Below, piece by piece: positions 11,160 to 61,852 of a stretch of 64,000 nucleotides of DNA (the first letter of the stretch is position 1; every line of letters starts with the position of its first letter). A program made the translations under genes and the position numbers. The notes beneath the pieces are model-generated. The model was given only the letters and a program-made list of their open reading frames with translations. It did not search any database and had not been told where the DNA came from. The stretch comes from Reclinomonas americana ATCC 50394 (taxonomy: Eukaryota): NCBI GenBank assembly GCA_048213135.1, contig PS015009.1, positions 2,170,001 to 2,234,000 on the forward strand. The letters run 5' to 3'.

Positions 11160-11461
11160 AAGAGTGAAGGAGGGAAGGAATGAAGGAATGGGATCTTTGG
11201 GAGAAATTGGCTACGGACGACAATCCACAGACGACAGGAGCGTGACGAAACAATCAGCATATTATACGCCACCAGGGAGTTTCCTTGTGTCCTTCATGTC
11301 TTTGTGGGAAAATAAATAAAGAGGGAAAAATGGGTAAATATATATGAAGGGCTTGATAAGTTGAGAGTTGTACTTTTTAATCTTAACTTACTGTTTCGCG
11401 TCTTTGCTCCTTTGCGGGCCTTGCGTGAACCCTTTTTAATTTTTAATTTTGACTTTTACAT
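11154..11461. repeat. Mosaic of short-period arrays (8-, 7- and 9-mers) upstream of dnaX
   Basis: GAATGAAG-type x5 (11154-11193); CCACAGA/CGACA-type (~11211-11238); CCTTGTGTC-type (~11283-11307); CTTTGC-type (~11395-11428); TTTTAAT/TTTGACT x4 (11434-11461). Confidence 0.75.
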
Positions 11462-57119: not shown

Positions 57120-58610
57120 ATGCTTAGCTACATTCTCGCCTTCGACCAGGGAACCACCAGCAGCAGGGCTATCCTGTTTGACCGGAAAGGACAGATCGTT
57201 TCCCTGGCGCAGAAAGAATTCACACAACATTTCCCCGAGCCCGGCTGGGTGGAACACGATGCCGCGGAAATATGGAGCACGCAACTGGGTGTGGCAGTGG
57301 AAGCCATTACCAAAGCGGGGCTCACCGCGGAAAACATCGCTGCCATTGGTATTACCAATCAAAGGGAAACCACCATTGTATGGGACAGGCTCACAGGCAA
57401 ACCTGTTTATAATGCCATCGTTTGGCAGGACAGGCGAACGGCGGCTTATTGCGATGAACTCAGGGCACGCGGACTGGAATCCACGATCAGGGAAAAGACC
57501 GGGCTGGTGATCGACGCTTATTTTTCCGGCACCAAGCTTAGGTGGATACTCGATCATGTACCGGGAGCAAAAGATAAAGCCAACAGGGGCGAACTCTGTT
57601 TTGGGACAGTCGACAGCTGGCTAACGTGGAACCTTACCCGCGGACAGGTGCATGCCACAGATGTTTCCAACGCGTCAAGAACGATGCTCTGCAATATTAA
57701 TACCCTTCAGTGGGATGAGGAATTGCTGCAATTGCTGGATATCCCCTCGTCTGTTTTGCCGGAGATCCGCAGCAGCAGCGAAGTGTACGGGCATACACAA
57801 AATATCCTCACGGCACATCATATACCGGTGGCAGGCATTGCCGGTGATCAGCAGGCGGCCTTATTCGGGCAGATGTGTATACACCCCGGCATGGTGAAGA
57901 ACACCTACGGCACCGGTTGTTTCATGCTGATGAACACCGGCGAAAAACCCGTGACCTCGCGGCATAACCTGCTCAGCACCGTGGCCTGGCAGGTGAACGG
58001 CATTACGCAATATGCGCTGGAAGGAAGTGTGTTTATTGCCGGCGCGGCGGTACAATGGTTGCGTGACGGGCTCGGTATCATCAAAACATCAAAAGATGTG
58101 GAAGCGCTGGCTTCATCGGTGGCCGACAGCGACGGCGTGTACCTGGTGCCTGCCTTTGCAGGATTGGGAGCGCCTTACTGGAACGCTTATGCCAGGGGTA
58201 CCATCACGGGCATAAGTAGGGGTACTACGGCAGCACACATTGCCCGGGCGGCAGTGGAAAGCATCGCTTACCAGTCCATGGATGTACTGAATGCCATGGA
58301 AGCTGATGCCGGTATCGCTATAAAAGAATTACGGGTTGATGGTGGGGCCACTGCCAACAATGCCTTGATGCAATTTCAATCTGACCTGCTCAATTGTAAA
58401 GTGGTCCGCCCGCAGGTAACGGAAACCACGGCACTGGGAGCAGCCTACCTCGCCGGGCTGGCCGTGGGTTACTGGGAAAGCCTGGAAGAAATACAGGACC
58501 AGTGGCAGGTAGACAGGAAATTCACTTCGACCATGGACGATACCGAAAGAGAGCGTTTCACAAAAGGCTGGAAACGGGCAGTGAAGACAGCCGTGGCCTG
58601 GGCGGAATAA
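57120..58610 (+). CDS. glpK: Glycerol kinase
   Basis: [38 protein letters not shown]. Confidence 0.97.
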
Positions 58611-58611
58611 T

Positions 58612-58709
58612 AGTCGCAAGTATCAAGTAGCAAGTAGCGAGACGAACTCTTCCGTATTTGAAGCGTATTCTTTCTTGATACCTGATACTTAATACTCACT
58701 ACTCTTACT
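58612..58709. mobile_element. Gene-less element: inverted AGTAKCA heptamer arrays around a ~30-bp core (MITE-like)
   Basis: AGTCGCA AGTATCA AGTAGCA AGTAGCG ... TGATACC TGATACT TAATACT CACTACT; shares AGTATCAAGTAGCAAG and CCTGATACTYAATACT with the flanks of 61108-61467. Confidence 0.6.
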
Positions 58710-58733
58710 AAAACAACCAAAGACTAACGACTC

Positions 58734-59447
58734 ATGACTAATTTCCTCTTCGAACTCATCGGCACTGCCTTCCTCATTTTACTGGGCGACGGGGTAGTGG
58801 CCAATGTGGTACTGAGCAAAACAAAAGGCAATAACAGCGGCTGGATCGTGATCACTTTCGGGTGGGCGATGGCCGTTTTTGTTGGTGTTTATATAGCGGC
58901 CCCCCACAGCGGGGCGCACCTGAATCCTGCCGTAAGTGTGGCGCTGGCCACAGCGGGAAAATTTCCATGGGACCAGGTGCCCATATATATAGCCGGGCAG
59001 TTTGCCGGGGCCATGCTGGGTTCCCTGCTCGTATGGGTGGGATATAAGCAGCATTTCGATGCCACGCAGGACGCCGATGCCAAACTGGCTGTATTCTGTA
59101 ACAGTCCGGCTGTACGCAGTACCGTTCACAACCTGCTGACCGAGATTATCGGTACCATGGTGCTGGTACTGGGTGTAATGTATATGACGGCTCCCGGGGT
59201 AAAACTGGGCACCCTGGATGCCTTGCCGGTAGGTTTACTGGTGCTGGCCATCGGGCTAAGTCTTGGCGGACCAACAGGTTATGCCATCAATCCTGCCCGC
59301 GACCTGGGTCCCCGTATCATGCATGCTATCCTGCCCGTTAAAGGGAAAAGGGACAGCGACTGGGGGTACAGCTGGATACCCGTGGCAGGCCCGCTTGCGG
59401 GGGCGGTACTGGCCGCTCTCCTGTATGGCCTTATCCCGCAGGGTTAA
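58734..59447 (+). CDS. glpF: Glycerol uptake facilitator (MIP)
   Basis: Two NPA motifs (HLNPAV, AINPARD); adjacent to glpK. Confidence 0.93.
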   Translation: MTNFLFELIGTAFLILLGDGVVANVVLSKTKGNNSGWIVITFGWAMAVFVGVYIAAPHSGAHLNPAVSVALATAGKFPWDQVPIYIAGQFAGAMLGSLLVWVGYKQHFDATQDADAKLAVFCNSPAVRSTVHNLLTEIIGTMVLVLGVMYMTAPGVKLGTLDALPVGLLVLAIGLSLGGPTGYAINPARDLGPRIMHAILPVKGKRDSDWGYSWIPVAGPLAGAVLAALLYGLIPQG

Positions 59448-61058
<1,611 letters not shown>

Positions 61059-61060
61059 TA

Positions 61061-61090
61061 GAGTTTAGTAGTGAGTATCAAGTAGCAAGA
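61061..61090. repeat. Left heptamer array of the four-helix-bundle element
   Basis: GAGTTT AGTAGTG AGTATCA AGTAGCA AGA. Confidence 0.85.
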
Positions 61091-61107
61091 AAAGAGGAGG
61101 ATGAGTA

Positions 61108-61467
61108 ATGAGGGTGCATAACTTTAAAGAGTTACAGGTATGGAAAAATGCTATTGAACTTGCAGAGTTTATCTATCGGCTTACTACTAATTTCCCGAGG
61201 GAAGAAAAATTCGGACTGACTTCACAGATACAACGATGTGCTGTCTCGATTCCGTCAAATATAGCTGAAGGCGCCGGCAGGGTATCGAAAAAGGAGTTTC
61301 AGCATTTTATAAGTATCGCAATGGGGTCGGCGTTTGAATTGGAAACACAGATCTTTCTTGCTTCGCGGTTTAATTATATAAGTGCAGAGCAGCTGGCAGA
61401 GTTTGAAGTTAAAATGACTGCGATACAGAAAATGGCATTTGGATTGTTTAACAGCTTGGAAAAGTAA
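61108..61467 (+). CDS. Four-helix-bundle protein (23S rRNA IVP/S23-like, Avd-related fold)
   Basis: F.EL.VW.NA..L...IY.LT..FP.EEKFGLTSQIQR.AVSIPSNIAEG.GR....F..F..IA.GS..ELETQ. Confidence 0.92.
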   Translation: MRVHNFKELQVWKNAIELAEFIYRLTTNFPREEKFGLTSQIQRCAVSIPSNIAEGAGRVSKKEFQHFISIAMGSAFELETQIFLASRFNYISAEQLAEFEVKMTAIQKMAFGLFNSLEK

Positions 61468-61478
61468 TAGGTTGCCAA

Positions 61479-61508
61479 TCCTGATACTCAATACTTGCTA
61501 CTAAATAC
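61479..61508. repeat. Right (inverted) heptamer array of the four-helix-bundle element
   Basis: TCC TGATACT CAATACT TGCTACT AAATAC, an imperfect reverse complement of the left array. Confidence 0.85.
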
Positions 61509-61513
61509 AGATT

Positions 61514-61765
61514 ATGGTACTTGAAATATTGACACCGGAAAAAAAGATCTTCAGCGGCGACGTATACGGCGTTCAGTTGCCGGGCATTGAAGGTTCATTC
61601 GAAGTGCTCGACAGGCACGCACCACTGGTAAGTGCGCTGAAATCCGGTAAGCTGAAGATACTGAAAGATAAAACTGCAACCAGTTCCTATACCATCCAGG
61701 GCGGTTTCGTTGAGGTACTCAATAACAAAGCAACTGTGCTGGTGGAAGGAGCGGAAGAGTTGTAA
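61514..61765 (+). CDS. atpC: F1F0 ATP synthase epsilon subunit (short form)
   Basis: LEILTPEK, LPG.EG.F.VL..HAPL, GGFVEV. Confidence 0.93.
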   Translation: MVLEILTPEKKIFSGDVYGVQLPGIEGSFEVLDRHAPLVSALKSGKLKILKDKTATSSYTIQGGFVEVLNNKATVLVEGAEEL

Positions 61766-61789
61766 GCATAAACGCATTAATAATTGGAT

Positions 61790-61822
61790 AAGGCCTGCGC
61801 TCTTGCGCGGGCCTCTTTATTT
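61790..61822 (+). terminator. Intrinsic terminator after atpC
   Basis: AGGCCTGCGC-TCTT-GCGCGGGCCT followed by a T-rich tail. Confidence 0.8.
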
Positions 61823-61852
61823 TAACGACCAGCACAGATGGTAACTGCTCTT

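Follow-up and report, generated by a model that had tools for sequence, protein, structure and literature searches.

Between atpD and atpC in a 64,000-nucleotide stretch of the Reclinomonas americana ATCC 50394 assembly (GCA_048213135.1, contig PS015009.1, positions 2,170,001 to 2,234,000 of the forward strand; hereafter the window, G+C content 48%) lies a gene for a 119-amino acid four-helix-bundle (FHB) protein, bordered on both sides by arrays of 7-nucleotide (nt) repeats in inverted orientation. atpD and atpC form a two-gene unit, and a first-pass annotation, made from the sequence alone, had described the FHB gene as separating two intact host genes, which gene layout and family matches confirm. 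In window coordinates the features are as follows.

58611..58733, + strand: gene-less array element filling the glpK-glpF spacer (left array 58612-58644, right array 58672-58706)
59553..61058, + strand: atpD (ATP synthase beta), 501 amino acids, intact, Pfam ATP-synt_ab; its TAG stop abuts the left array
61059..61107, + strand: left cassette flank, including the purine-rich array of heptamers AGTAGTG AGTATCA AGTAGCA; arm 61064-61090
61108..61467, + strand: FHB protein gene, 119 amino acids, PF05635/TIGR02436
61468..61513, + strand: right flank, a pyrimidine-rich complementary array TGATACT CAATACT TGCTACT; arm 61479-61505, array to 61508
61514..61765, + strand: atpC, 83 amino acids, intact; a short epsilon with the beta-sandwich domain only (TIGR01216, 82.2 bits, cut-off 67.25)
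61791..61814, + strand: terminator-like hairpin 3' of atpC, the sole one of the atpD-FHB-atpC unit

The FHB gene is set off from its neighbours by 49 nt on the left and 46 nt on the right. A GGAGG-containing leader follows the left array up to the FHB ATG, and the right array stops 5 nt short of the atpC ATG. There is no terminator-like site inside the atpD-atpC insert, as had been noted, the only one being that after atpC. Transposase, reverse transcriptase (RT) and integrase families, likewise annotated as absent, gave 0 matches at E<=1e-5 among the 59 predicted proteins of the window (20 of which matched no family), and no RAYT-type family is found among them. Rfam has no match at gathering score in the window and four loci, and at E<=1 the interval 58550-61850 returned only chance Leu-leader matches, which fall on the atpC terminator.

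With at least three head-to-tail 7-nt units sharing a core in intergenic DNA, the flanks are tandem heptamer repeats. They also border the gene as the complementary arms of an intervening sequence (IVS) do: the arms are 27 nt long and 78% complementary, they pair also in registers shifted by 7 or 14 nt (e.g. 14 nt at 93%), and the RNA duplex of the two flanks has an energy of -28.4 kcal/mol against -14.4 +/- 3.5 for shuffled flanks (z = -4.0; 1 of 1000 shuffles equal). The fold of the whole insert is not exceptionally stable (z = -0.72), and the arms are paired in its minimum-free-energy and centroid structures. The pattern AGTA-N3-AGTA-N3-AGTA occurs four times in the window, twice flanking the FHB gene and twice in the glpK-glpF spacer; it is absent from 100 dinucleotide-preserving shuffles, and mononucleotide shuffles gave 0.005 runs per window. 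The glpK-glpF element, 2.4 kb upstream, is an inverted pair with about 30 nt between its arms and no open reading frame (ORF). Its fold is barely better than that of shuffles (z = -1.25; duplex 13/1000). Its arms match the atp arms at 21/24 and 20/23 positions, which is as good as the match between the arms within either element; a single array family is therefore represented in the window by two members, one with the gene and one without. The inverted AGTA-type arrays around the gene had thus been recognized correctly, but they do not belong to the gene exclusively, the gene-less inverted pair at 58611-58706 having matching units.

The FHB protein is a member of PF05635 (E=3e-40, 137.1 bits, cut-off 33.8, residues 7-110) and matches TIGR02436 (E=2e-36, 124.5 bits, cut-off 24). 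The PF05635 family is large, as 7,938 of 8,000 scored candidates were relatives at E<=1e-10, and its proteins have had no known function since their discovery in 23S rRNA intervening sequences. Solved relatives of the FHB protein are PDB 2gsc (E=2e-26) and 2rld, each deposited with five chains. The ratio of nonsynonymous to synonymous substitution (dN/dS) for the intact FHB genes of relatives is 0.03-0.12, and because such values denote purifying selection the protein is judged to be functional. PADLOC gave no defence family matching it, and tblastn gave no match in phages at E<=1e-6. A fold shared with Avd, the accessory protein of diversity-generating retroelements (DGRs), had also been noted; the family is homologous to Avd (NF033474, 28.8 bits, E=1e-6; PF22296, 38.7 bits), but the curated cut-offs of the Avd families (80 and 40 bits, respectively) are not reached.

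Relatives of the locus were obtained by scanning GTDB species genomes with AtpC, and the best 80 of 450 confirmed loci (L001-L080) were compared, all from Chitinophagaceae-type metagenome-assembled genomes (MAGs), one genome per species, with AtpC identities of 78-88%. The atpD-atpC spacer was measured in 76 of them; in a 77th locus, L008, the sequence starts within an FHB gene immediately 5' of atpC. In 13 of the 77 loci the spacer holds an FHB gene, 41-71% identical to that of the window. The empty sites for which the first-pass annotation had proposed to look are present in six loci, with spacers of 5-18 nt, three of which read TAA, 5 nt and ATG. The remaining spacers are 26-286 nt of non-coding DNA, many of them consisting of inverted 7- or 8-mer arrays of the TTAGC type, the TTTGA type and others. 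Three of the 13 FHB genes are disrupted by frameshifts (L028, L074, L075), which may be assembly errors, as many of the comparison genomes are MAGs; L077, the sister of the frameshifted L075, has kept the left array and about 25 further nt and has lost the ORF. A profile from ten intact FHB proteins found a single further gene in the six-frame ORFs of 1.26 Mb, that of L060.

On a host tree of atpD and atpC DNA (67 rows), the 10 carriers need 10 state changes under parsimony, which is the maximum, and carriers stand beside empty relatives, for example L023 with L072 and L049 near L030 (synonymous divergence, dS, of atpD 0.40). FHB proteins are of two types, A in the window, L023, L049 and L052, and B in all others, and L054, among the nearest host relatives of the window, carries type B. 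In approximately unbiased (AU) tests, for groups chosen after the trees had been seen, the FHB tree rejected window+L054 (p=0.00065) and the host tree rejected window+L023+L049 (p=0.0052). A gene fixed and vertically inherited at this site, the outcome named beforehand as fatal to the idea of a mobile unit, is therefore not what the junction holds: given patchy carriers, ten changes and the mutual rejection of the trees, the FHB gene at atpD-atpC is not fixed, nor has it been inherited by vertical descent alone. It is hardly credible that it belongs to the atpDC operon as an accessory gene passed on vertically, with ordinary regulatory hairpins as its flanks, even though 13 of the 14 FHB-bearing loci among L001-L080, plus the window, have it at this junction (L060 has it elsewhere) and L023 and L049 share a cassette type with an FHB dS of 0.86, not lower than the atpD dS of 0.49. 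Against it stand the ten changes, the empty 5-nt spacers in the close relatives just named, the incongruent trees, and the same module in unrelated operons and rRNA, including two cassettes with matching empty sites in a Nostoc plasmid operon (see below). These comparisons show a cassette patchy at atpD-atpC, exchanged between lineages and decaying to gene-less arrays, the gene being gained or exchanged, held by selection for a time, and then broken and deleted. An identity profile of the window's atpD and atpC against 11 relatives gave no clear switch towards type-A carriers, as homologous recombination through the flanks might leave.

In L010 (3379-4562) the arrays around the FHB gene have expanded, the left one to about 320 nt and the right one to about 500 nt, so that the atpD-atpC spacer measures 1184 nt. 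L054, which has a type-B cassette at atp, also has a half element (11166-11226, minus strand), in which four AGTATTN units, with AAGAC at their end, immediately follow a stop codon and no complementary right arm is present.

Beyond atpD-atpC, homologues on plasmids were collected by tblastn against PLSDB, which gave 23 records; 19 were analysed, mostly from Cyanobacteria, two second plasmids of already sampled species and two partial matches being left out. The units are, for example, GGGAGTA, GGGTGTA, GGCAGAA, AAAAGGG, GGGAACA, AGGAGTC and TTTTAGC, and two cassettes have 8-mers. All follow one layout: purine-rich units extend from the stop codon of the preceding gene up to the start of the FHB gene, and their complement spans the interval between the FHB stop and the start codon that follows. 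In 15 of 16 cassettes, purines make up at least 69% of the left arm. Within 250 nt of either end of the gene, 9.5 kb in total, there are 30 heptamer arrays, as against 17 in the other 35 kb, and four of these 17 overlap the stop codon. Cassettes lie in cas6-cas4 (twice, with different cassette types), cas10-cmr3, parA-parB, nrdB-nrdA and other operon junctions. In Azospirillum lipoferum (L092) the FHB cassette lies within the large-subunit (23S) rRNA gene, which makes it a classical ORF-bearing IVS, and its 36-nt arms consist of five heptamers on each side; in Gemmatimonadota (L093) there are four 8-mers on each side. A table in PMC5524665 places an FHB gene of Flavobacterium columnare between gmk and nadD with spacers of about 35 nt.

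Three Nostoc plasmids (L095, L096, L099) have one operon in common and provide filled and empty versions of two junctions. Between the 441-nt and 288-nt genes, L095 and L099 have an AGGAGTC-type cassette and L096 has the empty junction TAG GTT ATG; between the 288-nt and 1542-nt genes, L096 has a GGGAAAA-type cassette and L095 and L099 have the empty junction TAA KTT ATG. At both Nostoc junctions and at atpD-atpC the insert reaches from directly after the stop codon to 2-7 nt before the start codon, so the expectation that the unit enters operons between stop and start is borne out by filled and empty sites at all three. The same module is shown by these searches to recur in other operons, in other phyla and, as judged by its position in L092, as an ORF-bearing IVS of the 23S rRNA gene.

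The cassettes of three cyanobacterial plasmids lie in CRISPR-cas operons with different unit types (L084 and L091 in cas6-cas4, L097 in cas10-cmr3). A terascale CRISPR survey names '23S rRNA IVP' among CRISPR-linked domains (PMC10910872), an entry that FHB cassettes in cas operons may explain. The left arrays of L081, L085, L088, L089, L093 and L096, from Cyanobacteria and Gemmatimonadota, are repeats of G3N4 type, which is the form of a G-quadruplex motif; it is not a general property, because the AGTA, TTAGC and AGGAGTC types do not have it.

That gene and arrays form a unit, as the first-pass annotation supposed, was examined with a flank score. It rates the best inverted repeat that can be formed, without gaps, by two regions, namely the 160 nt preceding a gene and a stretch that starts 25 nt before its 3' end and stops 130 nt beyond it. 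The score is at least 12 in 12 of 14 Chitinophagaceae FHB genes (12.0 in the window) as against 8 of 354 other genes of those loci, these controls being called by a crude longest-ORF heuristic, and in 16 of the 19 plasmid-borne homologues, where the repeats concerned are 15-46 nt long. Unit type also separates the atp gaps: AGTA/GTAGC units occur in 12 of the 13 gene-bearing gaps and TTAGC or TTTGA units in 0 of 13, and the 64 gene-less gaps comprise 8 with AGTA, 8 with TTAGC, 7 with TTTGA and 41 with none of these. The FHB gene of L060 lies between ABC-transporter ATPase and permease genes, co-oriented with them, and is flanked by four NNTTAGC units and four complementary ones.

When 30 FHB proteins are placed in a tree, those whose cassettes share a unit fall together across host orders and genomic contexts. 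Stanieria is joined by two Nostoc (GGCAGAR, support 100/99), Pseudanabaena by Calothrix (TTAGC type, 96/98) and Geminocystis by Nostoc (GGGAAMA, 99/98); an AGGAG group has support of 100/99, and the sister of the Chitinophagaceae AGTA clade is a Nostoc GGGAGTA cassette (85/89). By locus, unit type follows clade in L083+L086+L087 (100/99), L084+L090 (96/98) and L085+L088 (99/98). Unit sequence had been predicted to track protein phylogeny, and protein and unit distances are indeed correlated (Mantel r=0.46; 0 of 5000 permutations as high), with unit consensus sequences assigned by eye; the mean unit difference is 0.7 letters for pairs at least 60% identical versus 3.0 for other pairs. Whatever the cause of this correlation, gene and arrays therefore move as one piece, and the evidence shows a single heritable unit, inherited and moved horizontally together.

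It is very improbable that gene and arrays are unrelated neighbours, slippage-prone heptamers filling permissive spacers in which FHB genes also gather. Heptamers are reported to be the commonest intergenic periodic repeat in prokaryotes (bioRxiv 10.1101/309039), and gene-less arrays with periods of 7, 8 and 9 and many unit types do occur at atpD-atpC, glpK-glpF and mraZ-rsmH, as this explanation would have it; however, it does not account for the flank scores, for a unit type that is specific to gene-bearing gaps and follows the protein clade across phyla and contexts, or for arms that are complementary and of consistent polarity relative to the ORF.

Gene-less arrays were surveyed in the same 1.26 Mb as arrays of three units with at least four invariant columns and a period of 7 or 8, with arms up to 1.5 kb apart. 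Of the 46 inverted pairs found, 18 are from the atp gap; the other 28 include just one that holds a gene. The first-pass annotation had missed that gene-less arrays far outnumber gene-bearing ones. A direct-orientation control (86 direct versus 68 inverted pairs) was inflated by the long L010 arrays and was not used. Outside the atp gap, the left arm starts -24 to +4 nt from the end of the neighbouring gene in 25 of 28 pairs, and none of the 25 pairs with both neighbours called lies in a divergent spacer, compared with 195 of 966 spacers overall. Arrays recur with different units in different genomes at glpK-glpF and mraZ-rsmH. In L099, a gene-less inverted pair at 407-672, in the next spacer upstream, has the unit type of the L099 FHB cassette.

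Inverted 8-mer arrays fill mraZ-rsmH in L016 (14365-14501), and likewise in L013, L017, L026, L030, L033, L049 and L057; the right arm in L016 lies inside the longest rsmH ORF, and its translation would give the N-terminal repeat STNQLINQNTNQ. At glpK-glpF, L035 and L049 have inverted arrays with a 9-nt period and L030 has none, and the glpK-glpF distance is about 1.7 kb in L020, L057 and L071.

The position of the arrays, spanning the interval from stop to start codon and avoiding divergent spacers, is what would be expected of a host-serving post-transcriptional regulator that binds arrays before start codons, its own included, tunes translation or coupling, and is kept as useful rather than selfish. 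The low dN/dS would also agree with this, and heptamers before start codons have been proposed to bind an unidentified regulator (PMC4679880, bioRxiv 10.1101/2022.06.06.494920). Such a regulator nevertheless seems quite unlikely here: extreme patchiness at one junction, together with pseudogenes, speaks more for a dispensable element than for something that regulates ATP synthase, the module is also present within 23S rRNA, where translation is not regulated, and antisense copies occur.

A non-autonomous DNA transposon similar to a miniature inverted-repeat transposable element (MITE), with the arrays as terminal inverted repeats for a transposase encoded elsewhere and the FHB gene as mere cargo, is unlikely, even with much in its favour. 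The ends resemble terminal inverted repeats, gene-less copies exceed gene-bearing ones, insertion occurs in either orientation, a 7-nt duplication is possible at one junction, and one array family has two copies in the 64 kb of the window, one with the gene and one without. The difficulty is that dozens of unrelated unit types would each need a transposase, whereas the FHB protein is the sole constant companion of the arrays. Strong purifying selection is not expected of a passenger gene, purine polarity relative to the ORF in 15 of 16 cassettes is not explained by symmetric DNA ends, there is no clear duplication at the atp site, and no transposase family is found among the 59 window proteins.

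The locus is probably an IVS-type cassette, that is, an FHB gene without promoter or terminator of its own, placed between inverted arrays and exactly filling the atpD-atpC intercistronic spacer. Since it has no terminator of its own, the cassette would be co-transcribed with atpDC by read-through from the atpDC promoter, and the left array and leader would act as the translation-initiation region of the FHB gene. In the transcript, the two arrays could pair to an imperfect stem of about 27 bp from which the ORF is looped out, a stem of the type reported to be cut by RNase III in rRNA intervening sequences (PMC4990558). In the rRNA case of L092, heptamer-built arms are seen in this role. The protein, as a pentamer, would recognize the 7-nt units both of the element that encodes it and of copies lacking the gene, and such recognition would keep unit sequence and protein lineage matched. 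Insertion would take place in DNA, immediately 3' of a stop codon and in both orientations, with the responsible function acting in trans or via recombination.

Several observations weigh against this proposal or parts of it. Mismatches between arms in the 46 Chitinophagaceae array pairs are 24 G.U, 49 A.C and 114 of transversion type; there is no G.U excess, and therefore the stem is not visibly maintained by RNA-level compensation in Chitinophagaceae. In the plasmid set the arm mismatches are 26 G.U versus 13 A.C, a trend only (p=0.053). Three of the 17 annotated plasmid cassettes are antisense to their operon and therefore cannot depend on host read-through. The FHB gene of L067 is at the atp site without arrays, and three plasmid loci have no clean left/right pair, though with arrays on one or both sides. 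Gene-less arrays are far commoner than genes, several unit types occur within one 20-kb locus (L026), and many arrays have no visible cognate protein. Common descent of the cassette alone, without any recognition of repeats by the protein, would give the correlation between unit and protein. A target-site duplication is at best hinted at by 6/7 and 5/7 matching letters at the two Nostoc junctions, with none at atpD-atpC, and because all comparison genomes are diverged (atpD dS 0.3-2), no recent insertion event has been caught.

What is conserved in the arrays is the core of each unit and not the pairing of variable positions. Together with the strand polarity, the five-chain relatives and the contact of Avd with RNA, this is the reason why binding of the FHB protein to its own arrays is favoured, as an inference. 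Avd has a four-helix bundle and forms a pentameric basic barrel (bioRxiv 10.1101/2023.10.23.563531, PMC10053308); it is an obligatory RT cofactor and contacts an RNA element, and in the bound RNA a segment upstream of the template pairs with a downstream segment (bioRxiv 10.1101/2023.10.23.563531). This resemblance could be extended to a retro-mobile cassette, the transcript of which is held by an Avd-like pentamer, copied by an RT acting in trans (group II intron or DGR) and integrated after stop codons. The homology with Avd, the pairing of template-flanking segments in its RNA, and a purine/pyrimidine polarity that is strand-specific relative to the ORF are all in keeping with such a route. 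It is improbable all the same, in view of Avd matches below both curated cut-offs, no RT among the 59 window proteins, antisense insertions, and no poly-A-like or template-repeat signature.

To return to the IVS-type cassette, a broader proposal can be put forward tentatively, and is possible without being likely: the PF05635 family would be the partner of bacterial heptamer repeats, a pentamer reading its own units, one per subunit, in single-stranded nucleic acid. Units and lineage would then co-vary in the manner of a simple recognition code, cassettes with the gene would represent the autonomous members of a family otherwise made up of gene-less arrays in operon spacers, and the rRNA IVS and the Avd of DGRs would be special cases.

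The known kind of element to which the locus corresponds is the ORF-bearing rRNA IVS, the window holding that module in a protein-coding operon. The ORFs of 23S rRNA intervening sequences encode the 'S23p' protein in Leptospira, Coxiella, Xanthomonas and Brucella (PMC4990558). The likeness extends to a PF05635 protein, an ORF between stem-forming complementary sequences, the absence of an encoded mobility enzyme, a sporadic distribution that has been read as horizontal transfer (PMC4990558), and, in the Azospirillum IVS of L092, the same heptamer-built arms. The differences are that the window cassette lies between stop and start codon of a protein-coding operon rather than in an rRNA helix, and that the Coxiella ORF is reported as decaying and probably untranslated (PMC4990558), whereas the window family is under purifying selection and has a purine-rich leader. 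Neither IVS arms made of heptamers nor gene-less IVS copies are described in the literature searched (mostly open-access papers), and no link of PF05635 to heptamer arrays or operon insertion was found in that literature. With Avd the protein shares the homologous four-helix-bundle fold, the pentameric basic barrel and the RNA contact being features of Avd itself; it differs in having atpD and atpC as gene neighbours, with no RT, template repeat or variable repeat nearby, in its low NF033474 score, and in the heptamer arrays, which are not a described feature of DGRs.

Tandem heptamer repeats are a known feature of bacterial intergenic regions, and those of Cyanobacteria are named STRR. TAACTGA heptamers have been reported from Beggiatoaceae, Cyanobacteria and Bacteroidetes (PMC4679880), an unidentified binding protein has been called for in the case of those of Nostoc (bioRxiv 10.1101/2022.06.06.494920), and the function of tandem heptamers has been given as 'with no clear clue' (bioRxiv 10.1101/309039). 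Like the arrays described here, these are 7-nt units in 2 to tens of copies, intergenic, with species-specific units and in the same phyla, often ending by a start codon or overlapping a stop codon, and both their function and binding partner are unknown. However, the reports treat stand-alone direct repeats, with one inverted case in PMC4679880, and the window-type arrays are complementary pairs around one protein family; PMC4679880 has no mention of 'helix bundle' or 'intervening'. The REPIN/RAYT systems (PMC3116915, PMC3337134) bear a likeness to the gene-less copies, in which a short spacer separates two inverted arms, but the window arms are internally tandem 7/8-mers, and some copies contain a 119-amino acid helical bundle in place of the single-copy tyrosine transposase of RAYT.

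Integron cassettes consist of a promoter-less ORF with an imperfect palindrome at its 3' end, are oriented with the upstream promoter and have tiny spacers. A promoter-less ORF oriented with an upstream promoter, an imperfect palindrome and tiny spacers are found here as well, but the halves of the palindrome flank the ORF and there is no integrase or attI. Integron-type core sites were considered and rejected, as the junctions do not fit GTTRRRY.

The cassette joins two old puzzles, the function of PF05635 and the partner of heptamer repeats, into one testable question. The gene and its complementary heptamer arrays travel together across four phyla, and a specific protein can be nominated for each repeat family. 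The data also show that IVS-type elements are not restricted to rRNA: they settle in stop/start gaps of 3-5 nt in essential operons (ATP synthase, ribonucleotide reductase, CRISPR-cas, parAB) and leave these intact. This is of relevance to operon annotation, to how insertions stay non-polar, and possibly to short sequence-specific nucleic-acid-binding modules.

Some further features of the atp region are recorded here. The FHB ATG has GGAGG 9 nt upstream, and the start codon overlaps a TAA (TAATG; window 61090-61107). A Shine-Dalgarno-like leader is unusual in Bacteroidota, and this one is absent from the type-A relatives L023 and L049. In at least 15 relatives (L005, L006, L013, L016, L017, L018, L024, L029, L036, L041, L051, L058, L061, L063 and L066) the atpD-atpC gap contains a conserved non-coding core of about 90 nt, and inverted GC-rich mini-hairpins or TTAGC-type 8-mer arrays flank it; in L013, L036 and L051 the core is interrupted at a single point by small palindromes. 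The L018 gap holding this core has no Rfam match at E<=1, and the core could be a small RNA, an atpC leader or other cargo. In the spacer upstream of atpD (59448-59552), a TAnnTTTG-type motif, TACCTTTG, lies about 45 nt before the atpD ATG. Motifs of this type fit the Bacteroidota -7 promoter consensus, and on account of it the atpD-FHB-atpC unit probably has its own promoter, separate from that of glpKF.

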